A stretch of 64,000 nt of DNA from an uncultured Ignavibacteriales bacterium (lineage in GTDB: Bacteria > Zixibacteria > MSB-5A5 > GN15 > FEB-12), in the NCBI GenBank assembly GCA_964540105.1, contig CAZILL010000002.1, positions 811,705-875,704 on the forward strand. Direction: 5' to 3'. The notes under the pieces are model-generated. The model ran no database searches. It worked only from the letters and a program-made list of their open reading frames with translations, and had not been told where the DNA came from. The position numbers were made by a program, and so were the translations under genes. This document shows positions 2,375 to 17,991 of the stretch, one piece after another. Position 1 is the stretch's first letter, and every line of letters begins with the position of its first letter.

Positions 2375-3979
2375 GTGCGTAATATAAACGGCGGAATCGG
2401 TTTGTCAACAGATAAGGCACCCAAAAATTCGGTAGCCCGATCAACCTGGATTGTCGCCGCCGGCACCGCGTTTTCCCGAGTTTCCGGTCTGCTTCGTGAG
2501 CAGGTGATGGCCTACTATTTCGGAGCCGGCATGGCCACCGACGCTTTTGTGTTGGCCTTCCGAATCCCGAACCTTCTGCGAGATCTTTTTGCCGAAGGGG
2601 CGCTTTCCTCCTCGTTTGTTCCGGTTTTCAAGGAACGCCTGGTGCAACAGACCCAGGAGGAAGCGTTCAAGCTAGCCAACATTGTAATCACTGCCATGGC
2701 CCTGGTCCTGGGAATCGTGACGATCCTCGGGATTGCCGCGACCCCGACGATCATCTACCTCACTGCACACGGATTCACTGACGAAGCTGACAAATTCGCC
2801 CTGACTGTCAACCTGACCCGCATGATGTGGTTCTTTCTCCCGCTCGTCTCTATTTCCGCTCTGATCATGGGGATGCTAAACTCGTTTGATCGATTCGGTT
2901 TGCCGGCCATGTCTCCGGCGATGTTCAACGTCGGCAGCGTCCTGACCGTAGTGTTCTTCTATCACGAATTTGATATGCCAGTGTACACTCTCGGGATCGG
3001 CGTGCTGGTGGGTGGAATTGGGCAGATCTTGATCCAACTGCCGTCGCTATGGAAGATCGGGTATCGATTCCGTTTCCGGCTCAGCCTTTTTGATGATGGC
3101 ATGAAGAAGATGATGAAGCTGTTTACCCCGATGATGATCGGGCTGTCCGCGGGACGGATCAACATCCTGGTGAATACACTGTTGGTTTCGTTTCTGGCCG
3201 AGGGATCGATCTCGTACTTGAATTACTCGTTCCGACTGATGCATTTCCCACTGGGGGTCTTTGCGGTGGCGCTCGGGACGGTCGCTTTGCCGCGAGCCTC
3301 AGAGATCGCCAGCAGAGGGAACATGGAAGAACTGGCCAAAATCTTCCACGAAGCGCTCAGCCTTAACTTCCTGCTCATAGTACCCTCGGCGTTCTGCCTC
3401 GGACTGATGGGGAGGGAAATTGTTGAGCTCATTTATCACTACGGAGCGTTTTCAGAGCTTCATACGACCAACACAGCATTGGCGCTGTTGCACTACTCGT
3501 ACGGTCTCATCGGTTTTGCCGCGGTGCGAGTGATTGTACCGATCTACTACGCTCTCGGGGATTCGCGCATCCCCATGAAGTGCTCGATCATCGCCGTCGC
3601 TGTAAATTTGGCGCTGTATTACCCTCTCATGAAACTGATGGATTTCGCCGGGCTGGCGGCCGCTACCTCGGTGGCTGGGCTCGTGAATTCCGGGCTCCTG
3701 ATTTACTATCTGTCAGATAAAGGGGTTCCGGTAAAATACGATAAAATCCTTCTGAACTTTGTTCGCATCTCGGTTGCTTCCGCGATTGCCATGGTTATCG
3801 CCAAATTTCTGCCCATCGATGTCTTGGTCAGCGCCGACAGCTTCGCCGGCCGTGTCGCGCACTCCTTGGTTCCCCCGACCGCGGGCGTTCTGTTGTACGT
3901 GCTGCTCTGTTCCTTCATGGGCATTCAGGAAATGGCTGTTTTGAAGCGGAAACTGCTGCGTCGACGATCCACATCATGA
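2375..3979 (+). CDS. murJ: lipid II flippase MurJ/MviN
   Basis: 534-aa polytopic membrane protein with the MurJ N-terminal signature SRVSGLLREQVMAYYFGAGMATDAFVLAFRIPNLLRDLFAEGALSSSFVPVF. The start is GTG 2375; an in-frame TTG at 2402 is an alternative. Confidence 0.9.
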   Translation: MRNINGGIGLSTDKAPKNSVARSTWIVAAGTAFSRVSGLLREQVMAYYFGAGMATDAFVLAFRIPNLLRDLFAEGALSSSFVPVFKERLVQQTQEEAFKLANIVITAMALVLGIVTILGIAATPTIIYLTAHGFTDEADKFALTVNLTRMMWFFLPLVSISALIMGMLNSFDRFGLPAMSPAMFNVGSVLTVVFFYHEFDMPVYTLGIGVLVGGIGQILIQLPSLWKIGYRFRFRLSLFDDGMKKMMKLFTPMMIGLSAGRINILVNTLLVSFLAEGSISYLNYSFRLMHFPLGVFAVALGTVALPRASEIASRGNMEELAKIFHEALSLNFLLIVPSAFCLGLMGREIVELIYHYGAFSELHTTNTALALLHYSYGLIGFAAVRVIVPIYYALGDSRIPMKCSIIAVAVNLALYYPLMKLMDFAGLAAATSVAGLVNSGLLIYYLSDKGVPVKYDKILLNFVRISVASAIAMVIAKFLPIDVLVSADSFAGRVAHSLVPPTAGVLLYVLLCSFMGIQEMAVLKRKLLRRRSTS

Positions 3980-3985
3980 TGGCGT

Positions 3986-6337
3986 ATGATTCGGCTGTTT
4001 CCGGGTCCATTTGTCCTACTCTTTGTGATTGCCGGCATCATGCTCGGCGACATCACCCATGCCAGCTCCTGGCTCTTTCTCTTTCTGTCCATCCTCTCTT
4101 TTGTTATCGGTATCTACTCAGCGTATCGACGCCGCTTGAAGGCGGCCACGATGGCTCTGGCCGTGTGCATCGGTAGCGCGGCCGGGTTCGAATTCAGTTC
4201 GGGCACGTATGATCTCGGGCCACATCACGTCGCGCGAATAATCCGGGAGCCGCAGGTTTATCAGGTCTTTGGGAAGGTTTCTGACTGGCCTGATATCCGA
4301 TCCACGTACACCGATGTTCGAATCGAGCTCGACTCGATCAGGGGGGACTTTGGCCGCAAAGTGACCGGCGCCATACTGCTGAAAGTGACCGATACGACCA
4401 CTGCTCTGCAACGAGGCGATGCCGTGGAGTTCGTCGGCAGGATCTACCCACTGAAGGGAAGCGACGATTCCCGGGGCGACTATCAGCGACGCCTCGCACT
4501 TCGAGGCATTTTTGGCACCGCGTATTTGCCTACTCTGCTTGATGTTCGCGTGGATCGACGCAGCAGCTACGGACTTGTTCACCAGGCTGATCGCCTGAGG
4601 GAATCGATTAAGGAATCCCTACAGCGAAATCTATCAGTTGAATCGGCAGCGCTGGCATGCGGATTCCTGATCGGAGAAACGCGAGATATCCCCGCTGAAA
4701 TCTATACCCGCTTTCGGGACACGGGAACACTTCATCTTCTGGCCATCTCCGGTTCGAATGTCGCGCTCTTACTTCTGGTCGTTTCCGTCCTGTTGCGACC
4801 GTTCGGCACGTCGCGCGTCACGCGATCGATTCTGCTGCTGGCGGTCGTCCTGGTGTTTTCGCTGATTTGTTATGGAGAACCGTCGGTGATTCGCGCTTCT
4901 CTCATGGCCACCCTTGTGATTCTGGCGCGGCTCGTCGGCCGACGCTACGATCTCAACAATATCATCGGCCTGACCGCTTTACTCATACTCCTCGTCCAGC
5001 CCGGCCAGCTCTTTGATGTCGGCTTTCAGCTGTCGTTTGCGACGGCCTGGGGCTTGATTTTCATCGTCCCGAAAGTTGCCCCGTTACTTGGCAGCTTTGT
5101 GGGTAATCCGTCACGGCAGGTGGATAATGCCGATCCCCAAGGTATGTCGCGGTACCGACTTCTGTTCCGCAGCCGCTGGCTCTCTTGGACACTTCTCTCG
5201 CTTGTTGTCTCTTTCGTTGCTCAGGTATCTTCCGCACCGATCATTATCTACTACTTCCGAGCAATTCCGCTCATCTCCCCGCTGGCGAATCTGCTCGTGG
5301 TCCCGATGGTTTCGTTGAGTGTGATTGGCCTCCAGCTCATCCTTGTAGCCAACCTGATCTGGCCAACGCTTGGGCTGTTCATTGGATCCTTGGTTGATCC
5401 GCTTATTCGCGCCACCTTGCGAGTGGCAAATGCGATGGGTGAGCAGCAGTGGGGAGTCGTCCGCCTCGAGAGCCATGCTGACCGCCTGATTGAGCTATTT
5501 GCAGTATTCTGCGCACTCGCGCTTCCGGCTCTGCTCGCGCTCGCGATAAGCAACAAGCGGTTTAGGCGGATAAGCGTGATCGCTTTCTGCGTGATGCTCA
5601 ATGCCGGGCTTTTCGTAGCTGCCGAGAGTGTTGTAAAGGGATCGGCTCCCTTCGTGCACATCGCCTCCGTCCCCGGTGGAGTTCTTGCGACCGTTTCGAC
5701 AGCGGCAGGCGAACCTGCGGATTGCATTTTGACAGGACTCGTCGGAAAGGAATACCCGGTCGATCAGCGCGTTCTTCTCCCGATTCTGAGCGAGCGGAAG
5801 GTCACCGATCTGGGACGTCTCTTCGTGCTCTCAGTGTCGTACGATGCGGTCGATGAACTGTTCAATCTTTCGGAACGGCTCAGAGTCGATACGCTCTACA
5901 TCCGGTCCGAACTGAGACCAATGATTGAGGACGCCCTGGCAGCCGACAGCACTCGCAGGGAGCAGACGCTGTCCGTATGCTATTTTGGAGACAGGTCTGA
6001 ATCCACACAGCATGCCGGTTATTACCTATCGAATAGCGCAATACGGCTCCACACGGCTGGGCGGGATTTCCAATTCGTGAGCAAGATTGGCTCACATGAG
6101 TTTCCGCCTGTAGAAGGGAGAGGTGCAGTTATGGTCATTGGGGGACCTTGGCAACCCTCAGCGACTGACTGGCTGGATGCGCGCAAGGCTGGTTATGACT
6201 TGGTCGTCTGTTCAAGAATCATACAGTACCACCCCCCGAACATAGACCGTAACGATCCGTATCCGGACCGCGTCGCTCCTGATTATGTCTATGATCTTGA
6301 CCGTCGCGGGAATCTGACCTTACCCTATTCCGAGTAG
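3986..6337 (+). CDS. comEC: ComEC/Rec2-family DNA internalisation channel protein with a degenerate C-terminal metallo-beta-lactamase-like region
   Basis: 783 aa. It has an N-terminal OB-like region (VTGAILLKVTD...GDAVEFVGRIYPL) and the competence-domain signature FRDTGTLHLLAISGSNVALLL within a polytopic membrane core. The C-terminal ~230 aa align in pattern to the ComEC MBL domain but lack the metal-ligand motifs. Confidence 0.85.
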   Translation: MIRLFPGPFVLLFVIAGIMLGDITHASSWLFLFLSILSFVIGIYSAYRRRLKAATMALAVCIGSAAGFEFSSGTYDLGPHHVARIIREPQVYQVFGKVSDWPDIRSTYTDVRIELDSIRGDFGRKVTGAILLKVTDTTTALQRGDAVEFVGRIYPLKGSDDSRGDYQRRLALRGIFGTAYLPTLLDVRVDRRSSYGLVHQADRLRESIKESLQRNLSVESAALACGFLIGETRDIPAEIYTRFRDTGTLHLLAISGSNVALLLLVVSVLLRPFGTSRVTRSILLLAVVLVFSLICYGEPSVIRASLMATLVILARLVGRRYDLNNIIGLTALLILLVQPGQLFDVGFQLSFATAWGLIFIVPKVAPLLGSFVGNPSRQVDNADPQGMSRYRLLFRSRWLSWTLLSLVVSFVAQVSSAPIIIYYFRAIPLISPLANLLVVPMVSLSVIGLQLILVANLIWPTLGLFIGSLVDPLIRATLRVANAMGEQQWGVVRLESHADRLIELFAVFCALALPALLALAISNKRFRRISVIAFCVMLNAGLFVAAESVVKGSAPFVHIASVPGGVLATVSTAAGEPADCILTGLVGKEYPVDQRVLLPILSERKVTDLGRLFVLSVSYDAVDELFNLSERLRVDTLYIRSELRPMIEDALAADSTRREQTLSVCYFGDRSESTQHAGYYLSNSAIRLHTAGRDFQFVSKIGSHEFPPVEGRGAVMVIGGPWQPSATDWLDARKAGYDLVVCSRIIQYHPPNIDRNDPYPDRVAPDYVYDLDRRGNLTLPYSE

Positions 6338-6468: not shown

Positions 6469-7671
6469 ATGAGCTTGTCAGGAAATCTGCGCACGGTTTC
6501 GTTTCCCGATATCCTGCAGTTGCTGGCCACCGGGAAGAAATCCGGAATTCTCGAGTGTCGAACGGCGACTCGACAGAAGGAGGTCGCGTTTCGTGACGGC
6601 AACATCATTTTCGCCTCATCGCTCAACAGCTCTGAAGATCTCTTGGGAAATATGCTGCTCAAGCGCGGGAAGATTTCCAAAACTGATCTCGAGCGGGCCA
6701 TAACGCTGCATCGGCAGACCGGTCGCCAGTTGGGCACGACGCTGATGGATATGAACCTCTTTGACAAGGAAGAGATCGGCTTGTGTCTCAAGTTGCAGAT
6801 TGAAGAGATCGTGTACAACCTGTTCTCATGGACCGAGGGAGACTTTATTTTTCATGAAGGATCGGCGCCGAGAAACGCCCCGTTCCTGATCGAGCTGAGC
6901 ACGATGAGCGTGATCATGGAAGGGACCCGTCGCATCGACGAGTGGTTGGAAATCCAGAAAGTGCTTCCCCCCGATGATGTCCTGTTGCGGATCAACAAGT
7001 CCCCCAAGGCTAACAACGACGAGGTCGTTCTCGCGCTCGACGAATTCCGCCTGCTGTCTCTTATCAACGGTGAGAGAATCGTTCCCGAATTGATCGACCT
7101 GTCGCCAGTGGGCGAATTCGTGACGTGTCGGGCCATCTACAAATTGATCATCAACGGTTTAGTGGAAGTTGCGGGGCGTCGCGAGGCACGTCCTGAAGAG
7201 CAGGAAGATCTGGAGGAGGCGGCGCTCTCGGTCATCTTCTATCTCTATAACAACTGTTTCTTTAGAATACGAACTCTGGTCGAAGGATTGCTTGGTGATA
7301 GCAATAGCCGCTTCTCCGCTTTCACGGCGCAATATCGCAGCGGCGTGCTGACGTTCTTTCCGGGCGTTGACCCGCACGCAGAGCTGAAGCCTCCCTTCGA
7401 CAAGTTCCTTAGTGCCGTCAAAGCCTTACCCGAGGAAACCCGTTACCACACAACAATGAGCCACTTGGAGCGAATGCTCTCGGAGCAATTGGTCTTTGTC
7501 TATGAGCTGCTCGGAACCGGCGCTTTCAGGGAAGCGGTGAATCGCGCCAAGAAAGAGATCTCCGAACCGTTGGCGGTTCGACGAGATCTGGTCCAGCGCT
7601 ACAGCATTGACGAGAGTATCTATGGTACCATAAAGCGAGCTGACAAGATTGTGAAGTTGATGCGAGGATAA
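6469..7671 (+). CDS. DUF4388 (PATAN-like) domain protein
   Basis: The N-terminus LSGNLRTVSFPDILQLLATGKKSGILECRTATRQKEVAFRDGNIIFASS is the typical DUF4388 opening. A second related segment is DEFRLLSLINGERIVPELIDLSPVGEFVTCRAIYKLIINGLVEV. The C-terminal half is helical. Confidence 0.8.
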   Translation: MSLSGNLRTVSFPDILQLLATGKKSGILECRTATRQKEVAFRDGNIIFASSLNSSEDLLGNMLLKRGKISKTDLERAITLHRQTGRQLGTTLMDMNLFDKEEIGLCLKLQIEEIVYNLFSWTEGDFIFHEGSAPRNAPFLIELSTMSVIMEGTRRIDEWLEIQKVLPPDDVLLRINKSPKANNDEVVLALDEFRLLSLINGERIVPELIDLSPVGEFVTCRAIYKLIINGLVEVAGRREARPEEQEDLEEAALSVIFYLYNNCFFRIRTLVEGLLGDSNSRFSAFTAQYRSGVLTFFPGVDPHAELKPPFDKFLSAVKALPEETRYHTTMSHLERMLSEQLVFVYELLGTGAFREAVNRAKKEISEPLAVRRDLVQRYSIDESIYGTIKRADKIVKLMRG

Positions 7672-7674
7672 ACT

Positions 7675-8058
7675 ATGAAACGAAGCGTTCTTTCAGCACT
7701 AATGATGGCGCTCCTGCCTTTCGCGAATGTGAGCGTTGCCGCTCAGACTCCCCCTGCTCAAACCGTAGCGGTGACTACCGCTCCACCCCTGTTTCTGACC
7801 ATTCTCGTTCTTCTGGCGTCAGGAGCTTGCGTGTATTTCTGCTGGCAGGTGTATAGTCTCGTCAGGGGAGGACAACTGAGCCGCAGCTGGCTGTTCTTTG
7901 CGGCCGGGTTCTTTGTGCTCGGCCTCAGCCAGTTCACACAGCTTCTGGACGGATTTGGAGTTTTCTCCGTTCCGAGATTCCTGGTGCCAATGGCGCTCAT
8001 CATGATGACTGGCCTGTTTTCATTTGGGCTACTCGAGACCAAGAAGGTCTTGAGTTAG
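7675..8058 (+). CDS. small membrane protein (signal peptide plus ~3 TM helices)
   Basis: 127 aa. The ATG lies 3 nt after the upstream stop. It has a signal-like N-terminus MKRSVLSALMMALLPFANVSVAAQ followed by three hydrophobic helices. No family is recognised. Confidence 0.55.
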   Translation: MKRSVLSALMMALLPFANVSVAAQTPPAQTVAVTTAPPLFLTILVLLASGACVYFCWQVYSLVRGGQLSRSWLFFAAGFFVLGLSQFTQLLDGFGVFSVPRFLVPMALIMMTGLFSFGLLETKKVLS

Positions 8059-8071
8059 GGTTGAAATTGAG

Positions 8072-8100
8072 TTGACACAATCGGTTGTAGGATTTATTGT
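8072..8100 (+). promoter_or_regulatory. candidate sigma70-type promoter upstream of the TPR-Roadblock gene
   Basis: TTGACA (8072-8077), a 17-nt spacer, then TATTGT (8095-8100), about 74 nt upstream of the ATG at 8174. This is a pattern match only, and the promoter consensus of this lineage is unknown. Confidence 0.25.
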
Positions 8101-8173: not shown

Positions 8174-9034
8174 ATGGCTACCGAACTCGAAGAACGAATC
8201 GACAAGTGCCAAAAGCTTCTGGATGTAGATCCGAACTCTCAGATCTTCGCTGCGCTGGCAGAAGCACACCGCTGCAAAGGGGACCTGGAGAAAGCGTTTC
8301 GAGTCTGCCAGTCGGGACTACGCACGCACCCGTCGTACGGGACCGCTCATGTCGTCATGGCCAAGATTAACCTCGATCGCGGGCTGTACGACTGGGCTGA
8401 GGCAGAAGTGAAGAAAGCGATCGAAATCGAGGGGAATGGTCGCGCAATTGAACTTCTCCTCGCGGAGATCTACATCTATAAGGGCGAGTTCAATGCGGCC
8501 GTCAAATTGCTTCGAAAGCTGCACCAAACAGATTCGAAGAACGAACAGATCAAGAAACTTCTGGATATCGCCCTGAAGCTTCCTGAGGAGCAAGCCTTAC
8601 TGATGAAATCCAAGACGCCCCCGGGGTTTGATACTGGAAACCAGTCTGCGCGAGTTCCCAAGTCGGCTGTCCAGGCCACGAGCCAGACGCTTGACATCAA
8701 GGATGTTCTGCAGGCGGGAGTGGCGATCCCGGATATCGAAGGGGCTCTGTTCATAAATGTCGAAGGGTTGGTAGTCGAATCTGAATGGCAAGTGAACCTC
8801 GATCCGAATGTGTGCAGCGCGGCGCTGGGCGACGTCGATCACTTCCTGAACCAGGCGCTCGTCAGAGGGGCTTTCGGGCGGGTTCGCACTACATTGATCG
8901 AGACGGTCGAGCAGGTGTTTTATCTTTTGCACGTCGCTGACGGACTGTTCCTTTTTGTCGGCAATAGCAAGATTAATCTCGGGACGCTTCGCATGCGAAT
9001 CGCGTCTCTCGTGGACAAATACAAAGCCAGATAG
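8174..9034 (+). CDS. TPR-repeat protein with C-terminal Roadblock/LC7 domain
   Basis: The N-terminal ~135 aa are TPR-like helical repeats (GDLEKAFRVCQSGLRTHPSYGTAHVVMAKINLDRGLYDWAEAEVKKAIEIE...). The C-terminal ~110 aa are Roadblock-like: DIKDVLQAGVAIPDIEGALFINVEGLVVESEW...GLFLFVGNSKINLGTLRMRI. Confidence 0.75.
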   Translation: MATELEERIDKCQKLLDVDPNSQIFAALAEAHRCKGDLEKAFRVCQSGLRTHPSYGTAHVVMAKINLDRGLYDWAEAEVKKAIEIEGNGRAIELLLAEIYIYKGEFNAAVKLLRKLHQTDSKNEQIKKLLDIALKLPEEQALLMKSKTPPGFDTGNQSARVPKSAVQATSQTLDIKDVLQAGVAIPDIEGALFINVEGLVVESEWQVNLDPNVCSAALGDVDHFLNQALVRGAFGRVRTTLIETVEQVFYLLHVADGLFLFVGNSKINLGTLRMRIASLVDKYKAR

Positions 9035-9048
9035 GGCAAGAGTTACCT

Positions 9049-10047
9049 ATGCAAGCAAATGGTCCAGTGAATAGTCGGGTCGTGCTGATCACGCTCGTGT
9101 TGTGGATTGTGCCGATGCTCATGTTTCCGCACATGTTCGGCACGGAATTGGCCAGGGATACGATGATCCATCTGGGATACGAGTTTGTGTTCTATGGATT
9201 GGTGGCCGGCATCTTCTTCCGTCGCAACACACTTATCGGTGTAGTTCAAGCGGCGGTGGCCTGTCTGGTCTATCGTATTGCTGTTGGCGCTGTCTTCGGT
9301 CTGCTGGTGGCGGTGATGTACTCGATGAACATAACGGTGACCATGACGCTCGGGATATTCAGTTATCTGCCGGCTCTCTTGCTCCACATTGTTGCGACGC
9401 CTTTTGCGCTCAGCTCAGTATTATCGTCCAGACAGTCATCCGAGCTTCGGCGCCGCAGTTCGTATCGTCCGTCGACATCGAACCCAGTTTCGACGGCCAG
9501 CCATACGTCGATCGCGATTTCCAAGGAGAAGGGGATTGTCAAGGAGACCGCTACCTCGAGAACGGCCCAGACCTTTGAAGCTTCCCGCCCACCTATCGTT
9601 GAACCCGAAAGCTCACTCTCTCCTCTACAACACTCTGAAGTGACCGGATTTGAACGGGCGACGCGGTATCTCGGAGAACATGCGGGAGTGTTCTTGGCAG
9701 TCGTGGTTGATAACGAAGGCTTGCTCCTTTCGAATTTCAAGCGGGGCACACTCAATCCCGAAGATTGGGCGCCGCTGGCGCTGCTATTCCACGACGCCAA
9801 CAGACGCATTCTCGATCGGACTCGTTTGGGAACGCCCGATCGCCTCGATCTCACGCTCAAGGATAAGCGAATCCTGATCGCGAGGGATTCAGTCTGCACG
9901 TTGATGGTTCTCGCCGAGCGGCACGCCGATGACACCCTGAGCATTCGCGCCACGCAGGCGATGGAAATGATCCGTAAATACGTCACCGATCGATTCGGTC
10001 AAAAACAGGATACTAACGCGGAGAGAATACATGTATCAAGTACTTAA
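9049..10047 (+). CDS. membrane-anchored Roadblock/LC7 domain protein
   Basis: Four hydrophobic helices occupy the first ~125 aa, followed by a Ser/Thr/Pro-rich linker. The C-terminus is Roadblock-like: LGEHAGVFLAVVVDNEGLLLSNFKRG...CTLMVLAERHADDTLSIRATQ. Its 3-prime end overlaps the next gene by 17 nt. Confidence 0.7.
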   Translation: MQANGPVNSRVVLITLVLWIVPMLMFPHMFGTELARDTMIHLGYEFVFYGLVAGIFFRRNTLIGVVQAAVACLVYRIAVGAVFGLLVAVMYSMNITVTMTLGIFSYLPALLLHIVATPFALSSVLSSRQSSELRRRSSYRPSTSNPVSTASHTSIAISKEKGIVKETATSRTAQTFEASRPPIVEPESSLSPLQHSEVTGFERATRYLGEHAGVFLAVVVDNEGLLLSNFKRGTLNPEDWAPLALLFHDANRRILDRTRLGTPDRLDLTLKDKRILIARDSVCTLMVLAERHADDTLSIRATQAMEMIRKYVTDRFGQKQDTNAERIHVSST

Positions 10048-10372
10048 TGATCTGAACAAAACGCCCGGGATCACCGGCTCGATGGTGGTTGGCAATGACG
10101 GGATCGTGATCGCAGCAGACCTCGAGGCCGGGTTTGAGAGTGAGACCGTTGGCGCTCTGGCAGCTTCCATTACGACCAATATCCAGAAATCATTGGATCG
10201 GCTGCACACGAGTCCCCTCAATCAGGTGACGATCGAAGCGGACGACGCCAAGTTGTTCTTCACGGACGCCAACATGGGGATCCTGGTGGTCACGACCGAG
10301 AAGAACGTGAACATTGGCTTGATCAGACTGGAGATCAAGAACGCCGTCGGCAGGCTAAAATCGCCTCACTAA
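10031..10372 (+). CDS. stand-alone Roadblock/LC7 domain protein (MglC-like size)
   Basis: 113 aa. LNDLNKTPGITGSMVVGNDGIVIAADLEAGFESETVGALAASI...GILVVTTEKNVNIGLIRLEIK is a full-length Roadblock pattern. Confidence 0.8.
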   Translation: MYQVLNDLNKTPGITGSMVVGNDGIVIAADLEAGFESETVGALAASITTNIQKSLDRLHTSPLNQVTIEADDAKLFFTDANMGILVVTTEKNVNIGLIRLEIKNAVGRLKSPH

Positions 10373-10404: not shown

Positions 10405-11448
10405 ATGGTTTCGATTAACTACTCGGCACGCGAGGTCAGCTGTAAAATTGTCTATTATGGCCCCGGATTATCCGGCAAGACCACCAACCTGCAGTACGTT
10501 CATGCGAAGGTTCCTCAGAATACTCGCGGCAAACTCATCTCACTCGCCACGGAAGCCGATCGGACTTTGTATTTTGATTTCCTTCCGATCAACATCGGGA
10601 ATATCAACGGCTTTACCGCAAAGTTCCAGCTCTACACCGTTCCTGGGCAGGTCTATTACAATGCGACCCGCAAACTCGTCTTGCGCGGTGTGGACGGTGT
10701 CGTGTTTGTCGCCGACAGTCAACCCGACAAGATGGATGAGAATCTGGAATCACTGTTGAACCTCGAAGAGAATCTGGCCGAATATGGCTATTCCGTGGAA
10801 GATCTTCCGATTGTCATCCAGTACAACAAACGGGACTTGCCCAACGTGCTCTCGGTCGATCAATTGAACGCTCAGCTCAACAAACGTGGTTGGCCCTACT
10901 ATGAAGCCTCCGCGACTATAGGAAACGGGATATTCGATACGCTGAAACTGGTGATCAAACTCGTTCTCGACAAAGCCAAGAATATCGGGGCCGCCCGCAT
11001 GCGACCGTCGGCTTCACTGGTGCCTTCGGCCGAGATACCGACCCCTCAATTCGAGCGAGTCGAGGTTCCGGCTGCGATGACATCAGAACGAATCACGCCC
11101 GCCGACAGCGGACGAGTATCGATACCGGAGCCTGTAGCCGTGGCCGCGCCAGCGCAAACGTCAACCCCCGAGCCAGCGGCCTTCCGGCCGTACCCTGGCA
11201 GCGGACGCCGCCCAAGCCCCGAACCACATCCCTATCCGCTCGAGGCTGAGTCGACAATCTCTCCGGCGCCCCGGCACACATCGGTGGTCACTGAGATGGA
11301 TGCGTTCAACCATGAAGCCGAGGAGATCGCGGAACATCGTTCATCGACTGAACCGACTCAGCCTCATATGGCTCCTTTCTTGAAGCGTCGACATGAGAAG
11401 GTTACCAAGAAACGCGGGTTCTTTGCGCGTCTCTTCGGATTGAAATAG
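10405..11448 (+). CDS. mglA: MglA-family Ras-like polarity GTPase with ~155-aa C-terminal extension
   Basis: Residues 1-192 align along their length with Myxococcus MglA as I recall it. Matching elements are INYSAREVSCKIVYYGPGLSGKTTNLQY (P-loop), ADRTLYFDFLP (switch 1), LYTVPGQVYY (the MglA-specific TVPGQ) and IQYNKRDLP. A Pro/Ala/Ser/Glu-rich tail follows, ending KKRGFFARLFGLK. Confidence 0.9.
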   Translation: MVSINYSAREVSCKIVYYGPGLSGKTTNLQYVHAKVPQNTRGKLISLATEADRTLYFDFLPINIGNINGFTAKFQLYTVPGQVYYNATRKLVLRGVDGVVFVADSQPDKMDENLESLLNLEENLAEYGYSVEDLPIVIQYNKRDLPNVLSVDQLNAQLNKRGWPYYEASATIGNGIFDTLKLVIKLVLDKAKNIGAARMRPSASLVPSAEIPTPQFERVEVPAAMTSERITPADSGRVSIPEPVAVAAPAQTSTPEPAAFRPYPGSGRRPSPEPHPYPLEAESTISPAPRHTSVVTEMDAFNHEAEEIAEHRSSTEPTQPHMAPFLKRRHEKVTKKRGFFARLFGLK

Positions 11449-11465: not shown

Positions 11466-11951
11466 ATGTCAGAAGATATACTCATCATTTATGAAGAAGA
11501 GATTAACAAGATCGATGCCCTTCTGAGTAAGATGATCAAGGGAGCCGAGGCCAAGTGCGCGCTTGTCGTGGATAAAGATGGCCATCTCATTACCCGCCAA
11601 GGATTCACCCATTCACTGGACACAACGGCTCTGGCGGCGCTTCTGGCCGGCAGCTTCGCCTCCACAAAAGAGATCGCCCGCCTTGTGGGAGAGCCCGAAT
11701 TCTCGGTGCTGTTCCACCAGGGGAAGAAAGATCACATTCACATGTCGATCGTCGGCGAACGATCCATCCTCGTCGTGATCTTTGATGACCGCACGACGAT
11801 CGGAATGGTCCGCCTCTACGCGAGGGAAACCGCTCAGGAACTGGCCGCGGTATTCGGACAGATCACCAAGAAGACGGACTCCAAGCCGGTGGTGAACACC
11901 AATTTCGCTACGGTTGCCCAAGACCGACTTGATGATATCTTTCAGGATTGA
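11466..11951 (+). CDS. mglB: MglB (Roadblock-type GAP of MglA)
   Basis: 161 aa with a strong SD (AAGGAGG) 6 nt upstream. It is collinear with Myxococcus MglB as I recall it: IYEEEINKIDALL...AKCALVVDKDGHLITRQG...LDTTALAALLAG...ILVVIFDDRTTIGMVRLYA...ITKKTDS...DDIF. Confidence 0.88.
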   Translation: MSEDILIIYEEEINKIDALLSKMIKGAEAKCALVVDKDGHLITRQGFTHSLDTTALAALLAGSFASTKEIARLVGEPEFSVLFHQGKKDHIHMSIVGERSILVVIFDDRTTIGMVRLYARETAQELAAVFGQITKKTDSKPVVNTNFATVAQDRLDDIFQD

Positions 11952-12028: not shown

Positions 12029-13720
12029 ATGTCTGCAGAACTCGGCGCCTTGCTCGTCAGTGCTGGGAAGATCACCCAGGAACAGGCTGATAAAGCTCTA
12101 TCCATTTCCAAGGAACGGAAAGAGAAATTCGGCGCAGCTCTGGTGCAGATAGGGGCCGTGCAGTCAGAAGACGAACTCGCTTCGTTTGTCGGAAAACACC
12201 TTAAGATCGGCGCTCTTCGGCTCAGTGACATCGAAATCAACCCCGATGTCGTTAAGCTCATACCGCTTGACATAGCCCGTAAATTCAAAGTCATCGCCGT
12301 CTCCCGCGTCAACAAGACGTTACTGGTCGCGATCAGCGATCCGAACAATATCTACGTTCTCGACGCCGTTAAATTCATAACGGGTTGCACCGTCCAGCCT
12401 GTTATCTCCCCGGAAAAGGCGATTGAGAAGGCGATCGACGTTCTCTACGCCGACAGCAGCGGCCTGTCGGAAATCGTGAAGGGTCTGGAAGAGTCGGACC
12501 TCGAGGTCGTGGCCGTTGACGAAGGGCTCAATGAGACCGACCTCCTGTCGGCCATTCAAGACAAACCGCTGGTCAAGCTCGTTGATTCAATCATCGGCGA
12601 CGCCATCCGCATGGGGGCGTCTGATATTCACTTCGAAATGTATGAAAAGAAAGTTCGCGTCCGCTACCGCGTCGACGGTGATCTTCAGGAAATGGCGCCT
12701 CTGCCGTTCAAATACCGGGCAGCAATGGTCTCGCGTATCAAGATTATGGCCGACCTGGATATTTCTGAGCGTCGACTCCCGCAGGACGGGCGCATCAAGA
12801 TCAAGTTTGGTGGACGCACGGTTGATCTCCGCGTGTCGGTCTTGCCGACAATCTTCGGCGAGAAAGTTGTCATGCGAATTCTCGACCCGACGGCGCTGCG
12901 CATCGACATGACCCAACTGGGGTTCCGTGAACAGGATTTGGTACGGTTCGAGGAGAAGATCCACTCGCCGTACGGCATTGTCCTGGTGACCGGCCCAACC
13001 GGTTCAGGAAAGACCACGACCCTATACTCCGCACTTCAGCAGTTGAACACCGTGGATGTCAACATCATGACCGCGGAGGATCCGGTGGAGTTCAACTTCG
13101 ATGGTATCAATCAGGTAGCGGTTCGGCCCGACATCGGGTTGACCTTTGCGGCGGCTCTTCGGTCGTTCCTTCGGCAGGACCCGGATATCATCATGGTCGG
13201 TGAGATTCGTGACAGCGAAACGGCCGAGATCGCCATCAAAGCCGCTCTTACCGGCCACCTTGTCTTTTCAACGCTTCATACCAACGACGCACCATCATCG
13301 GTCACCCGTCTCATCGACATGGGGATTCCGTACTACCTGGTGGCCTCGGCGACCAAGCTTATCATGGCTCAGCGTATGATGCGCAAGATTTGTCAACGCT
13401 GCAAGGAAGAGATTAACCTGACTCAGGAGCAGGTAGACAGCCTCAAGGTCCCAAAAGAATCGCTGCGGAATATCAGGGCCTTTCGTGGCGTCGGGTGCAA
13501 CGATTGCGGCAATACCGGAAAGTCCGGCCGAATTGGTATCTTCGAAGTCCTCCCGATCACTCCTGCCATCGAGAACCTCATCTTGGCCAAAGCCTCCGAC
13601 TCCGATTTTCGCCGGGTCGGTATCGAGGAAGGCATGTACAGCCTACGTATGGCAGCCGTAGAGAAGATGAAGAGCGGCATGGTCTCGATAGAGGAAGTGT
13701 TCGCCATTACGACCGCCTGA
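12029..13720 (+). CDS. pilB: type IV pilus assembly ATPase PilB (GspE family)
   Basis: 563 aa. It has an N-terminal T2SSE_N-type domain, Walker A GPTGSGKTTTLYS, the Asp/His boxes (IMVGEIRDSETAEIA, TGHLVFSTLHTNDA) and a tetracysteine motif CQRC...CNDC. Confidence 0.9.
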   Translation: MSAELGALLVSAGKITQEQADKALSISKERKEKFGAALVQIGAVQSEDELASFVGKHLKIGALRLSDIEINPDVVKLIPLDIARKFKVIAVSRVNKTLLVAISDPNNIYVLDAVKFITGCTVQPVISPEKAIEKAIDVLYADSSGLSEIVKGLEESDLEVVAVDEGLNETDLLSAIQDKPLVKLVDSIIGDAIRMGASDIHFEMYEKKVRVRYRVDGDLQEMAPLPFKYRAAMVSRIKIMADLDISERRLPQDGRIKIKFGGRTVDLRVSVLPTIFGEKVVMRILDPTALRIDMTQLGFREQDLVRFEEKIHSPYGIVLVTGPTGSGKTTTLYSALQQLNTVDVNIMTAEDPVEFNFDGINQVAVRPDIGLTFAAALRSFLRQDPDIIMVGEIRDSETAEIAIKAALTGHLVFSTLHTNDAPSSVTRLIDMGIPYYLVASATKLIMAQRMMRKICQRCKEEINLTQEQVDSLKVPKESLRNIRAFRGVGCNDCGNTGKSGRIGIFEVLPITPAIENLILAKASDSDFRRVGIEEGMYSLRMAAVEKMKSGMVSIEEVFAITTA

Positions 13721-13878
13721 TCGTTCAGGCTTGTGTCTGCCATCCCTGTTATCCATCAACAGGTTATCTCTCACCCCCGACAAGTTTTCAATCAAGAATC
13801 CTCGCCCGGCGCCGATATAGTTAGGGTAAGCATTCCTGCTCGAAAACAACCGGAACCTGGCTCTGGGAGACTGTTTAT

Positions 13879-14955
13879 ATGTCGTTGCGTGAATTACTCG
13901 AACACATGGTCAAGATGGGTGCGTCGGACCTACATCTCACCGTTGGCGCCCCGCCCGTTGTGCGCGTCGACGGCCGATTGCAACGACTCAGTGGTCAGGA
14001 CTTGTTGACATCGGAGCAGATTAAGAAGCTCGCGTACTCGATGCTCAACGAGAAGCAGAAACTGAAATTCGAACAAAACTCGGAGCTTGATTTCTCTTTT
14101 GGGATTGAGCAGATGAGTCGCTTTCGCTGCAACATGTTCATGCAGAGAGGCAATGTCGCCGTCGCGATTCGCCAGATACCGTACAATATCAAGACCTTCG
14201 ACGAACTCGGGCTGCCCAAAGTTATCGCCGAGTTCAGCAAGCTCCCTCGGGGTCTCGTGCTGGTTACCGGCCCGACCGGCTCCGGTAAATCAACTACTCT
14301 GGCGGCGATCATCGACAAGGTCAACAAAGAACGTCCTGTCCATATCATCACCGTTGAGGATCCGATTGAATACCTGCACCGTCATCAGATGGCGCTGGTA
14401 AATCAGCGGGAAGTGTATTCCGACACGCAATCATTCTCCGCGGCCCTGAAGTACGCCCTTCGCGAGGATCCCGACGTGGTTCTGATTGGTGAAATGCGCG
14501 ACCTGGAAACCATCGAAGCTGCGCTCTCGATCTCCGAGACCGGGCATCTGGCTTTTGCGACACTGCACACCAACTCCTGTGCCGAGACCATCAACCGGAT
14601 CGTGGATGTCTTCCCGACGAACCAGCAGGAGCAGATTCGAGTAGCCCTCTCTTTCTCGCTTCAGGCAGTGGTATCGCAGACCCTCATTCCCAAGGTCGGC
14701 GGCGGGCGCGTGATGGCTATGGAGGTCATGGTTGCGACGCCGGCCATCCGAGCCATCATCCGCGACGATAAAGTGCACCAGGTGTATTCCATGATCCAGG
14801 CGGGACAGAAATTCGGGATGAAAACAATGAATCAGTCGCTGGCCGAACTCTACACCAGCGGCCGGATAACCATAAACGATGCGATGAGCTACAGTCACAA
14901 CACCCAGGAGCTCAGCGAGATGCTGAACCGGCAGAAGACGCCGGCGTATTCATGA
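13879..14955 (+). CDS. pilT: twitching-motility retraction ATPase PilT
   Basis: 358 aa. It carries MGASDLHLTVGAPPVVRVDG, Walker A GPTGSGKSTTLAA, VLIGEMRDLETIEAAL, TGHLAFATLHTNS and the PilT-type AIRAIIRDDK (AIRNLIRE-like) motif. Confidence 0.92.
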   Translation: MSLRELLEHMVKMGASDLHLTVGAPPVVRVDGRLQRLSGQDLLTSEQIKKLAYSMLNEKQKLKFEQNSELDFSFGIEQMSRFRCNMFMQRGNVAVAIRQIPYNIKTFDELGLPKVIAEFSKLPRGLVLVTGPTGSGKSTTLAAIIDKVNKERPVHIITVEDPIEYLHRHQMALVNQREVYSDTQSFSAALKYALREDPDVVLIGEMRDLETIEAALSISETGHLAFATLHTNSCAETINRIVDVFPTNQQEQIRVALSFSLQAVVSQTLIPKVGGGRVMAMEVMVATPAIRAIIRDDKVHQVYSMIQAGQKFGMKTMNQSLAELYTSGRITINDAMSYSHNTQELSEMLNRQKTPAYS

Positions 14956-14981: not shown

Positions 14982-16178
14982 ATGCCGGTCTTTGAATACA
15001 AGGGCAAGACCTTAGCCGGAGCCGCCGTACAGGGGACCCTGAAGGCTAACAGCAAAGGGGAACTTGAGCGCCTTCTGCGCCGAAACCGCATCCTGGTGTC
15101 GTCGATAAGCAAACGCGCTCCGGAGATAAGCATCAAGTTTGGCACAGGCATCAAGAAGGTTGAAATCTCACGCTTTACTCGCCAGTTCGCGACCATGATC
15201 GGCGCCGGTCTCCCCATGGTTCAGTGTCTCGAAATCCTTTCTTCGCAGACCGAGAATAAGGAGATGGCCAAGGTTATCGGGGCGATCAAGAGCGGCGTTC
15301 AAGGAGGCTCGACCCTCTCGGAGTCCATGGCCCGCCACCCGAAAGTCTTTGACCCGCTGTACACTAACATGGTCGAAGCGGGTGAGGTTGGGGGTGCCCT
15401 CGACGCCATCCTGATTCGGTTGGCTGTCTATCGCGAGAAGGCCGACAAGTTGATTCGCAAAGTTAAAGGGGCGATGATGTATCCGGCGGTGATCGTTGTG
15501 GTCGCCACGGGCGTTACGATCGCGATGCTGACCTTCATCGTGCCGGTCTTCGCCAAGATGTTCGCAGGTGTTGGCGCCGAACTGCCGGGTCCCACTCAGG
15601 TCGTGCTCTCTCTGTCCAATTTCCTCAAGGCCAATATTGTCTATCTCGCACTTGGGGTTATCGGGCTGGTTGTCGGCGTCGTGTACTGGAAGAAGACCCC
15701 CAGCGGAGCGCTGAATTTCGACCGCATCCTCCTTAGGATGCCGGTCCTTGGGAATCTGGTGAGAAAGTCGTCGGTCGCTCGCTTCACCCGGACTTTGAGC
15801 ACCCTGCTTGCCTCCGGCGTTTCCATCCTTGATGCTTTGGAGATTACGGCCAAGACTTCGGGTAACCTTGTCGTGGCAGCGGCAATCAACAAGTCCGTGC
15901 TGGCCATCGCCGAGGGAGAAACCATCACCGGACCGCTGAAGGAGACCGGCGTCTTCCCGCCCATGGTCATTCAGATGATCGGCGTCGGTGAGAAGACCGG
16001 TGGTCTGGACGACATGTTGAATAAGATCGCTGACTTCTACGATGAAGAAGTTAATGATGCAGTGGCTGCGCTGACCTCTGTTATCGAGCCAATAATTATT
16101 GTGCTGATGGGTATTATCATCGGCGGTATTCTGATCGCTATGTACCTGCCGATGTTCGACATTATCGGAAAGATCTGA
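14982..16178 (+). CDS. pilC: type IV pilus platform protein PilC (T2SS F family)
   Basis: 398 aa with two T2SSF repeats. Supporting motifs are RFTRQFATMIGAGLPMVQCLEIL, RFTRTLSTLLASGVSILDALEI, GEKTGGLDDML and a C-terminal LPMFDIIG. Confidence 0.92.
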   Translation: MPVFEYKGKTLAGAAVQGTLKANSKGELERLLRRNRILVSSISKRAPEISIKFGTGIKKVEISRFTRQFATMIGAGLPMVQCLEILSSQTENKEMAKVIGAIKSGVQGGSTLSESMARHPKVFDPLYTNMVEAGEVGGALDAILIRLAVYREKADKLIRKVKGAMMYPAVIVVVATGVTIAMLTFIVPVFAKMFAGVGAELPGPTQVVLSLSNFLKANIVYLALGVIGLVVGVVYWKKTPSGALNFDRILLRMPVLGNLVRKSSVARFTRTLSTLLASGVSILDALEITAKTSGNLVVAAAINKSVLAIAEGETITGPLKETGVFPPMVIQMIGVGEKTGGLDDMLNKIADFYDEEVNDAVAALTSVIEPIIIVLMGIIIGGILIAMYLPMFDIIGKI

Positions 16179-16245
16179 TCACGACGCACACTGGCTGCAA
16201 AAGCCGGTGTCAATGTCAGGGCTCTGATCAGGGATATGAATGAGA

Positions 16246-16272
16246 AAGACGGCGCCGCCCCGGTGCCGTCTT
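16246..16272 (+). terminator. strong GC-rich hairpin between pilC and the kinase gene (terminator or attenuator)
   Basis: AAGACGGCGCCG (16246-16257), a CCC loop, then CGGTGCCGTCTT (16261-16272). This gives a 12-bp stem with one G-U pair. It is followed by AGTTTTA and then ATG 16279. Confidence 0.5.
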
Positions 16273-16278
16273 AGTTTT

Positions 16279-17991
16279 ATGGAACAGCAAGAACGACTCC
16301 GTCGACTCGGTTGGTTTCTGCCCCTCAGGCTGGCGTCCTACGTCATCTTGATGGCCGTGGTGGCGGTCTGGATGGGTTATCCGCGTTACCTTCAGTTCCA
16401 GGTCATCAGCTATTCAATTTGCACACTGGCCTTTACGCTCTCTTTCGCTCTTGAACGGCGTTTTTCACTTTCGCGGGTCACCCATGTTCTTGTCGCTATT
16501 CAATTCCTTTTAGAGATTTCGCTTGAGGGCGGAATCATCTACACGACCGGCAACGTCAACTCGCCGTTTTCGGCGCTCTTTCTGCTCACGATTGTATCGG
16601 CGGCGCTCGCCTATCGCCTCATGGGGACAATTGTCGTGGCCTCGATCGTTTCTCTGGCATATACCTTCATCATCTGGCTGGGGCTGAGCCAGTCTTCCGA
16701 TTCCGAAATGAATGTGCAGGCCTTGCGAACGATCTTCGCCAGCCAGGACGATGTCTTCTATTCGATATTTCTGCATATTCTGATCTTCTTTCTCATCGCA
16801 TTCATCTCCGGCTATCTCGCTGAACGCCTCAGCAGCCAGGACAAGCGCCTGGCCGACGCGTCACACGCTCTCAAGCTGGCCCGGCTGGAGACGGATGATA
16901 TTCTCCGCCATGTCAACTCCGGATTATTGACCATCGATTCAAGCGGGCACGTCATCTACTTCAATCATGCTGCCGAACGCATCCTGGGGTATCGGGAAGA
17001 GGAGGTACGTGGGCTGGCATGTGAGCAGGCTTTTGCCGAACGAATGCCGGTTCTTGCCCAACGACTCAAAGAAGGAATTCAGCAGGGGATAGAGCACCCC
17101 CGCCGCGAGATCGAAATCATTAATGCCGATCGTATACCGATTCCGCTTGGACTTTCCACGTCGATTCTTATGGGTGAAAGTGGTCTCGTGCGAGGCGTGA
17201 TTGCCATCTTCTCCGATCTCACCGAGGCTAAGGCGCTTGAAGCGAAAGTACGCGCCGCCGACCGGTTGACCGCGGTGGGCGAGCTCTCGGCGTCGATTGC
17301 CCACGAAATCCGAAATCCCCTGGCCGCGATTTCCGGGTCGGTCGAAGTTCTCAACAATGAACTGCAACTAACGGGTGAGAACGCCCGCCTGATGAATCTC
17401 ATCATCAAAGAATCCTCGCGGCTCAACAAAATCCTCTCGGACTTCTTGTCGTATGCCCGGGTCGATCGGCCCACGTACGACAAGGTTGAACTCTGCCACA
17501 TTGTTTCCGAAGTCATTGAGCTGCTGTATCATCAGGGGGAATTCAAGGATAACGTGAGCATCCGCTTTGACAGTGCGGAATCAATCGTGTATGTCATCGG
17601 CGATGGCAACCTGTTCAAGCAGTTGCTGATGAACCTGATGTTGAACGCTTGCGAGGCTTTTGAGGGGAAAAGGGGAGAGGTTGTCGTAAAGCTTGAGACG
17701 CGAACTTCATCAAGAACAGTTCTTCTTTCGGTTAGTGACAATGGCCCCGGCATCCCGGAGTCTCGTCTCGAAAGAATCTTCCAACCCTTCTACTCGACCA
17801 AGAAACACGGCACGGGTCTGGGACTCGCGATTGTTCACAGAATCTGCGCAGCCCTGCGAGTGAACACACATGTACACTCTCGTGTCGGGCAGGGGACGGC
17901 GTTCGTTCTCGAACTGCAGCGATACTCGCAGGATACTCCTCTCGAACACTACGGCAACGACGCCCCGGCTCTTCAGATCACTCACTCCTGA
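16279..17991 (+). CDS. PilS-like sensor histidine kinase (polytopic N-terminus, PAS, HisKA, HATPase)
   Basis: There are about 6 N-terminal TM helices and a PAS segment ILRHVNSGLLTIDSSGHVIYFNHAAERILGY. The H-box is SASIAHEIRNPLAAISG, and the ATPase boxes are LMNLMLNACEA, DNGPGIP and GTGLGLAIVHR. I moved the start from 16240 to ATG 16279 so that the hairpin at 16246-16272 is not coding. Confidence 0.85.
   Translation: MEQQERLRRLGWFLPLRLASYVILMAVVAVWMGYPRYLQFQVISYSICTLAFTLSFALERRFSLSRVTHVLVAIQFLLEISLEGGIIYTTGNVNSPFSALFLLTIVSAALAYRLMGTIVVASIVSLAYTFIIWLGLSQSSDSEMNVQALRTIFASQDDVFYSIFLHILIFFLIAFISGYLAERLSSQDKRLADASHALKLARLETDDILRHVNSGLLTIDSSGHVIYFNHAAERILGYREEEVRGLACEQAFAERMPVLAQRLKEGIQQGIEHPRREIEIINADRIPIPLGLSTSILMGESGLVRGVIAIFSDLTEAKALEAKVRAADRLTAVGELSASIAHEIRNPLAAISGSVEVLNNELQLTGENARLMNLIIKESSRLNKILSDFLSYARVDRPTYDKVELCHIVSEVIELLYHQGEFKDNVSIRFDSAESIVYVIGDGNLFKQLLMNLMLNACEAFEGKRGEVVVKLETRTSSRTVLLSVSDNGPGIPESRLERIFQPFYSTKKHGTGLGLAIVHRICAALRVNTHVHSRVGQGTAFVLELQRYSQDTPLEHYGNDAPALQITHS

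Follow-up and report, generated by a model that had tools for sequence, protein, structure and literature searches.

An MglA-type GTPase of Zixibacteria with a long disordered extension and a putative MinD/RocS-type membrane-targeting sequence at its C-terminus

In bacteria, MglA serves as the paradigm of spatial regulation by a Ras-like protein. To our knowledge, current models all treat MglA as a soluble protein that is captured at the cell pole by protein partners. In this study, we describe an MglA with a long C-terminal extension, MglA-ext, which is encoded in a 64-kb window of contig CAZILL010000002.1 from an uncultured bacterium. The window is the whole stretch of DNA analysed (64,000 nucleotides); all coordinates refer to it and all features described lie on its + strand. 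The gene mglA-ext (10405..11448) comprises 347 codons plus stop and is preceded by a likely ribosome-binding site, GGAAAG, 5' of the ATG. Its product combines an MglA G domain, a disordered linker and a polybasic tail whose core is identical to that of a validated membrane anchor. We propose, with a probability of roughly 70%, that the tail, a MinD/RocS-type amphipathic helix on a flexible leash, would tether the MglA G domain to the cytoplasmic membrane, near membrane Roadblock partners and pilus motors.

Judged by its G domain (residues 1-195, 10405..10989), MglA-ext is classed as a group-1 MglA with an added module. The domain matches the PDB chains 5ymx, 6h17 and 3t12 with E-values of 1e-73 to 3e-79. 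In this search of PDB sequences Myxococcus xanthus MglA (5ymx) aligns to residues 3-196 (E=3.4e-79) and Thermus thermophilus MglA (3t12) to residues 2-190 (E=1.5e-73), while small GTPases other than MglA reach only E-values above 1e-6. Identity to M. xanthus MglA amounts to 62% (121/194). Conservation was read from alignments of 29 and 122 sequences, in which the functional motifs are invariant or nearly so. The P-loop GPGLSGKT (residues 19-26, 10459-10482), the intrinsic Arg finger R53 (within 10558-10575) and T78VPGQ82 (10636-10650; the T78xxGQ82 motif with Thr for Asp in G3) occupy invariant columns. NKRD (residues 141-144, 10825-10836) is invariant except for R143, which is conserved in at least 90% of the sequences, and the lysines K181 and K185 of helix alpha5 (10933-10983) are conserved as well. 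The assignment to group 1 follows from the presence of the P-loop, R53, T78xxGQ82 and NKRD together with an MglB gene directly 3'. Pfam reports generic Arf/Ras matches only, and there is no dedicated NCBIfam model. An N-terminal amphipathic helix of the Arf/Sar1 type is absent, the N-terminus MVSINYS... aligning with canonical MglA from residue 3. Neither a second MglA nor a MinD, both looked for as a comparison, is present in the window. In the PDB, MglA chains of the canonical type measure 195-203 aa, hence about 150 residues of MglA-ext are extra. The single-domain layout of about 195 aa is thus not found in this family (347 aa in the window protein, 316-414 aa in homologues).

The extension beyond the G domain comprises residues 196-347 (152 residues). 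A preliminary description of this DNA had placed the codon of residue 193 at 10981 and the last 11 codons, RGFFARLFGLK, at 11413-11445, and both positions are right. The unusual length and a local GC peak (0.66-0.685 at 11000-11300) are all that could be held in favour of an artefact, be it a frameshift in the assembly, an overlooked stop codon or two genes fused into one. The GC peak is explained by the Pro/Ala-rich composition of the linker and its codons. The identical 347-aa product is found on four independently assembled contigs, and the three places shown stem from three different sequencing runs. The set of homologues consisted of the best 120 database matches, which are 316-375 aa long apart from one truncated entry. 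An in-frame extension of 124-183 aa (median 154) ending in the same tail is present in 119 of these 120, so that its conservation in orthologues, which the preliminary description had left to be checked, is established. Extensions with this tail also occur in frame at no fewer than 41 genomic loci. Because of the four identical contigs and the in-frame homologues a frameshift or missed stop is excluded, and we rejected the artefact with next to no doubt.

The tail, KKRGFFARLFGLK (residues 335-347, 11407..11445), is a putative membrane-targeting sequence (MTS) with the core GFFARLFG at 11416-11439. Within the family it reads KKRGFFKRLFG(I/L)K; G338 and G345 are invariant, and F339, F340, R342, L343 and F344 are conserved in at least 90% of the sequences. 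The core ends two residues from the stop in the window protein and in every full-length homologue. The pattern basic-G-F-hydrophobic-x-R-L-F-G, on which the comparison with MinD had been founded in the preliminary description, is indeed present (KKR-G-FF-AR-LF-G), the MTS of Escherichia coli MinD being KGFLKRLFGG (PMC5471200). The likeness goes beyond MinD: the MTS of Streptococcus pneumoniae RocS has a core identical to that of the window protein over eight residues. As determined by magic-angle spinning solid-state nuclear magnetic resonance, the RocS peptide KKGFFARLFGGK inserts into the membrane as a kink-helix that begins at the conserved glycine, and the authors of that work compare the RocS MTS with MinD tails (PMC13042908). 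A DNA pattern for GFFx[KR]LFG occurs once on both strands of the window versus 0 times in 100 shuffles, which argues against a chance match. The degenerate protein pattern likewise occurs once in six frames, two residues ahead of the mglA-ext stop codon. The summed Wimley-White interfacial energy is -2.5 kcal/mol for GFFARLFGLK, which is no less favourable than the -1.55 of E. coli MinD or the -1.95 of RocS. Concerning lipidation motifs, no C-terminal CAAX, CC or CXC motif was found among the 120 homologue C-termini; the extension of the window protein has no Cys and 3 of 119 homologues have any.

To see where else the tail occurs, the family consensus RGFFKRLFG was scanned as a degenerate DNA pattern against one genome per species, which returned at least 120 loci. 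Among the loci listed, at least 41 encode MglA with an extension (39 of them full-length), and about a dozen more are 5'-truncated copies. Three loci encode MinD proteins with RGFFKRLFG as their exact C-terminus (Ottowia, Caldimonas and a Campylobacterales metagenome-assembled genome, MAG), which score 333-348 bits with TIGR01968 at a cut-off of 213 bits. One listed locus encodes an FtsY, with a TIGR00064 score above cut-off. PBP1A-like penicillin-binding proteins (PBPs) carry the motif at or near the C-terminus in Agriterribacter (L020), Acidobacteriota (L023, L067), Elusimicrobia (L069) and Propylenella (L083); L069 passes the NCBIfam PBP1A-family cut-off and the others were judged class A PBPs from sequence. 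Taken together, the comparison shows [KR]GFF[KA]RLFG as a recurrent module on unrelated membrane-associated proteins, namely MinD, RocS, FtsY, class A PBPs and Sel1-repeat proteins.

Two of these carriers deserve description in their own right. The FtsY, a 329-aa 5'-cut open reading frame of a Candidatus Ruminococcus ruminiciens MAG (L071), consists of an NG domain, a highly acidic disordered region of about 150 aa and then KKRGFFKRLFGRKDSDDE; this is the same layout of GTPase, disordered linker and MTS on a different GTPase class. The Sel1-repeat proteins P0151, P0153, P0162 and P0163 (949-1141 aa) contain 5-8 internal copies of KKGFF[KSA]RLFGK with acidic linkers between them, the N-terminus of P0151 being signal-peptide-like, and P0165 and P0166 (about 300 aa) hold three copies of the motif. 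We know of no description of such a repeated use of a MinD-type peptide.

Between the G domain and the tail, residues 196-334 (10990..11406) form a variable linker rich in Pro, Ala, Ser and Glu, with a net charge of -4 (family median -3, down to -18), no Cys and no predicted secondary structure. P, A, S, E, T and G account for 59% of the extension, and a hydrophobic segment is absent. Alignment reveals a length-variable, poorly conserved linker that is broken by three conserved islands, that is the tail and two motifs ahead of it. Island 1, FRPYPGSG (residues 260-267, 11182..11205; family (Y/F)RPYPGS), has R261, P262, P264 and G265 invariant, and RP[YF]PG is present in 119/119 homologues, 56-82 residues ahead of the tail. 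Island 2, PHMAPFLKRR (residues 320-329, 11362..11391; family PxMAPSLRRR), has M322 invariant and always lies 12-17 residues ahead of the tail glycine. It belongs to a polybasic C-terminal module, the last 27 residues having a net charge of +8 in the window protein and of +6 to +11 in homologues. AlphaFold2, run with 29 and then with 122 sequences, predicted no regular structure past helix alpha5 (which ends at about residue 198) except a short helix at 339-344; these models are of low confidence (mean pLDDT, the predicted local distance difference test, 51 and 61), the N-terminal half of the G domain included, owing to a shallow alignment of closely related sequences, and provide no contact read-out. 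Of the flexible tether envisaged in the preliminary description, the disordered Pro/Ala/Ser/Glu linker thus stands. It is not a featureless spacer, since it contains two further conserved motifs.

A sub-clade of the family (e.g. P0053, P0063, P0066, P0076, P0121, P0126) has two more islands 3' of RPYPGS, KKISxxxFxP (18/119) and EKNV[VI] (9/119), with shuffled match rates of at most 0.002. Neither is found in the window protein. KKISxxxFxP resembles a phosphorylation-type site of the form basic-x-Ser.

When a profile built from the 85 C-terminal positions was run against 1.84 billion representative proteins, only 48 matches were obtained. Those read were fragments of the MglA-ext family or repeat proteins with only the tail in common, and a second protein family with the whole C-terminal module was not found among the matches read from this search. 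On these grounds the whole module is specific to the MglA-ext lineage, and the tail peptide alone is a portable and widespread element. For the islands YRPYPGS and PxMAPSLRRR, the most likely role is that of short linear motifs which bind partners encoded in the gene cluster; a protein with TPR repeats and a Roadblock domain is a candidate reader of the YRPYPGS or MAPS island, by inference only.

An alternative role of the tail is protein binding. Tail and islands would then be purely protein-binding short linear motifs, with the TPR-Roadblock protein, PilB/PilT and the PATAN protein among the conceivable partners, and the resemblance to an MTS would be incidental. Such a role would fit the two islands, which are without obvious lipid-binding character, the TPR protein encoded in the same cluster and the occurrence of the motif in exported proteins, where it is not strictly a cytoplasmic membrane anchor. 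However, an identity of 8-9 residues with the anchors of RocS and MinD, in the same extreme C-terminal place, is hardly due to chance. Moreover, unrelated carriers of the motif (MinD, FtsY, the PBP1A family) share membrane association and no common partner. We therefore consider it quite improbable that the tail serves protein binding exclusively, and prefer membrane tethering.

The analysis demonstrates the architecture and its conservation, the synteny, and a tail that matches validated anchors identically in sequence; concerning the mode of tethering, we infer lipid binding, topology, partners and an effect on pilus polarity. MglA-ext would be an active, MglB-regulated switch, in which a flexible linker of about 140 residues joins the G domain to a polybasic amphipathic peptide. 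On contact with anionic phospholipids the tail would fold into a short kinked helix (G338, then FFARLF), and the face formed by F339, F340, L343 and F344 would insert into the inner leaflet of the cytoplasmic membrane. Neighbouring Lys and Arg residues (net +8 over the last 27 residues) would add electrostatic affinity. The G domain would thereby stay at most a few tens of nanometres away from the membrane, where it could meet the membrane Roadblock protein, a protein with four transmembrane (TM) segments, the soluble Roadblock protein, the TPR-Roadblock protein, MglB and PilB/PilT/PilC.

Several points weigh against tethering by the tail. The motif resides on presumably periplasmic C-termini of the PBP1A family and is thus not exclusive to the cytoplasmic face. 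Within Sel1-repeat proteins it recurs internally, and one or more of these proteins begin with a sequence like a signal peptide. With values of 0.24-0.38 the tail has a modest hydrophobic moment, which does not exceed that of shuffled controls, as 12,690/20,000 shuffles (63%) reach it; the helical-wheel check put forward in the preliminary description hence lends no support. Since the validated RocS anchor itself scores only 0.245 (0.424 for E. coli MinD), the moment is uninformative and was rejected as a discriminator. Both AlphaFold2 models have a low overall confidence and are uninformative on docking of the islands onto the G domain. The host phylum is uncultured. A single MTS of the MinD type binds weakly, and MinD itself depends on dimerisation driven by ATP. 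In the MglA:MglB2 complex, canonical MglA is a monomer (PMC6785124). If MglA-ext is a monomer too, it may bind the membrane transiently or in dependence on avidity or on the polybasic flank.

Tethering may also be conditional. As a refinement compatible with the proposed anchoring, the tail could be a nucleotide-dependent switch, comparable to the N-terminal helix of Arf: in one state the G domain or the acidic linker would sequester it, and in the other it would be free to reach the membrane. The charges of the net-negative linker (median -3, down to -18) and of the last 27 residues (+6 to +11) make electrostatic masking possible, and MglA undergoes a large beta-screw rearrangement between its nucleotide states (PMC6785124). 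No docking was seen in the AlphaFold2 models, which are of low confidence and lack a contact read-out, and a linker of 140 residues is needlessly long for an intramolecular latch. The sole known helix-binding pocket of MglA, an allosteric one lined by the conserved K181 and K185, takes acidic helices, namely the C-terminal helix of MglB (PMC6785124). This MglB helix is acidic here as well (...DRLDDIFQD). Because K181/K185 and the acidic MglB tail are both conserved, the basic tail of MglA-ext seems unlikely as an intramolecular ligand of this pocket. On balance we regard a nucleotide-gated tail as unlikely.

The gene neighbourhood of mglA-ext is conserved. The genes from PATAN to pilC lie on one strand with short or overlapping junctions, and the order of ten genes, PATAN, 4-TM, TPR-Roadblock, TM-Roadblock, Roadblock, MglA-ext, MglB, PilB, PilT, PilC, is the same in all 39 related loci, as far as these are stored. 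The cluster begins with a PATAN (DUF4388) protein of 400 aa (6469..7671; Pfam PF14332, E=2e-32). It is followed by a small protein of 127 aa (7675..8058) that belongs to no Pfam family and for which four TM segments are predicted. Almost all related loci that cover the position have a 4-TM protein there, flanked by the PATAN and TPR-Roadblock genes, with weak matches of 27-57%. Domain searches identified the next product as a TPR-repeat protein of 286 aa with a C-terminal Roadblock domain (8174..9034). For an integral membrane protein of 332 aa (9049..10047), several TM segments are predicted within residues 11-127; its C-terminal domain is Roadblock-like, hhalign giving a probability of 93.5% (E=2e-7) with the Robl113 family and the Pfam match alone being sub-threshold. 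The linker of this protein (residues about 128-198) is unconserved. That this linker shares a YRP-type motif was considered and rejected, as the motif is not conserved there. The stand-alone Roadblock/LC7 protein of 113 aa (10031..10372; Pfam E=2e-12) is syntenic in all 39 loci. The start of its gene and the end of the preceding membrane Roadblock-like gene have 17 nt in common, an overlap that points to translational coupling and perhaps to a heterodimer of the two products. Downstream of mglA-ext, 17 nt after its stop, begins the gene of MglB, a 161-aa Roadblock protein of the GTPase-activating type (11466..11951; Pfam Robl_LC7, E=3e-14; NCBIfam MglB model E=3e-26, below cut-off), with a ribosome-binding site AAGGAGG. 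MglB is next to mglA-ext in every related locus whose stored sequence does not stop at mglA-ext. Then follow the type IV pilus motor genes pilB (12029-13720), pilT (13879-14955) and pilC (14982-16178), recognised by the Pfam set T2SSE, MshEN and T2SSF; all three are likewise syntenic in related loci. As the conserved operon holds two integral membrane proteins, one of them Roadblock-like, and pilBTC, the system is membrane-located in any case.

A promoter-like site at 8072-8100 (10/12 sigma-70-like match) closely precedes the TPR-Roadblock gene. At the pilB stop (13715-13730) there is a weak hairpin resembling a terminator, with no terminator-like site between the two; the counts of such sites are not above shuffled expectation. 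On the 5' side (2375-6337) the flanking genes encode the lipid II flippase MurJ and a competence channel resembling ComEC. The 3' side (16240-17991) encodes a PilS-like sensor kinase, the PilS domain of which has six TM segments. Overall, the region is a pilus/competence neighbourhood.

M. xanthus MglA is reported to stimulate type IV pili via the TPR effector SgmX (PMC7519303). The TPR-Roadblock protein is a candidate counterpart of SgmX. A bolder version of the proposal, which we put forward tentatively and hold to be rather doubtful, is that the MglA switch of Zixibacteria is a permanently membrane-attached module, regulated at the membrane surface by a platform of four Roadblock proteins, one of them an integral membrane protein, and directly gates PilB/PilT. 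It would be a convergent counterpart of Ras/Rag-Ragulator, in which the pole is chosen by the lipid or curvature preference of the anchor and not by landmarks of the RomR/RomX type.

Concerning distribution, the related loci are labelled Zixibacteria/GN15, 'bacterium' or, in some MAG sets, Ignavibacteriales. Over 6-8 kb, L017 and L101 are 92% and L004 and L008 89% DNA-identical, although one set carries the labels uncultured Ignavibacteriales/Ignavibacteriaceae and the other Candidatus Zixiibacteriota. One of the two sets of labels is, by these identities, evidently wrong. Given an identity of 89-92% to Zixibacteria-labelled loci, the Ignavibacteriales label is unreliable, and an apparent spread into Ignavibacteriota was set aside. 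All MglA-ext loci appear to be Zixibacteria.

A survey of prokaryotic Ras-like GTPases from 2014 mentions no C-terminal extension or membrane anchor on MglA (PMC4316618). The literature was searched for MglA in Zixibacteria and for any MglA that has an MTS, a C-terminal extension or an amphipathic helix, and no such architecture is described there. A phylum-wide MglA variant with its own anchor would, if true, mean that bacteria, too, use the eukaryotic design of G domain, hypervariable linker and membrane anchor. It would further provide a natural experiment on the effects of tethering in a GTPase/GAP (GTPase-activating protein) polarity circuit. The tail is a short portable peptide, so that the claim is testable in standard hosts, and the recurrent [KR]GFF[KA]RLFG module is useful for the annotation of peripheral membrane proteins.

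With the MglA of M. xanthus and T. thermophilus, MglA-ext shares the G domain (62% identical in M. xanthus) with its P-loop, R53, T78xxGQ82, NKRD and K181/K185, an adjacent MglB with an acidic C-terminal helix and a link to type IV pilus ATPases. Canonical MglA is soluble, has about 195 aa and is brought to the pole by protein partners, whereas MglA-ext adds 152 residues with a linker, two motifs and an anchor-type tail. MinD has the same basic-G-F-hydrophobic-x-R-L-F-G pattern in the same extreme C-terminal place. However, MinD is a ParA-type ATPase, its tail follows directly after the fold, and two tails act jointly after ATP-dependent dimerisation; MglA-ext is a presumably monomeric GTPase with a single tail, a 140-residue linker and a much stronger polybasic flank. 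RocS (...ATKKGFFARLFGGK) resembles MglA-ext in the core GFFARLFG, in the basic residues before it (KK in RocS, KKR in MglA-ext), in the terminal Lys after it and in the conserved Gly, which is an experimentally defined kink in RocS (PMC13042908). In contrast to MglA-ext, RocS is a DNA-binding, multimerising coiled-coil protein, neither a GTPase nor equipped with a long disordered linker. FtsY is likewise a bacterial GTPase that is held on the membrane via a disordered region, its acidic A domain, and an amphipathic, lipid-binding helix, and one Ruminococcus FtsY has the motif KKRGFFKRLFG. Yet FtsY is of the SIMIBI class, not Ras-like, and differs in function. In E. coli FtsY the disordered region is N-terminal. 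Finally, the layout of a G domain, an unstructured and poorly conserved linker and a polybasic C-terminal anchor recalls the hypervariable region and anchor of eukaryotic Ras, Rho and Rab proteins, e.g. the polybasic-farnesyl anchor of K-Ras4B. These proteins use a CAAX/prenyl anchor instead of an amphipathic helix, and the linker of MglA-ext is 4-6 times longer. The likeness of MglA-ext to Ras, Rho and Rab is one of convergence, not of membership.

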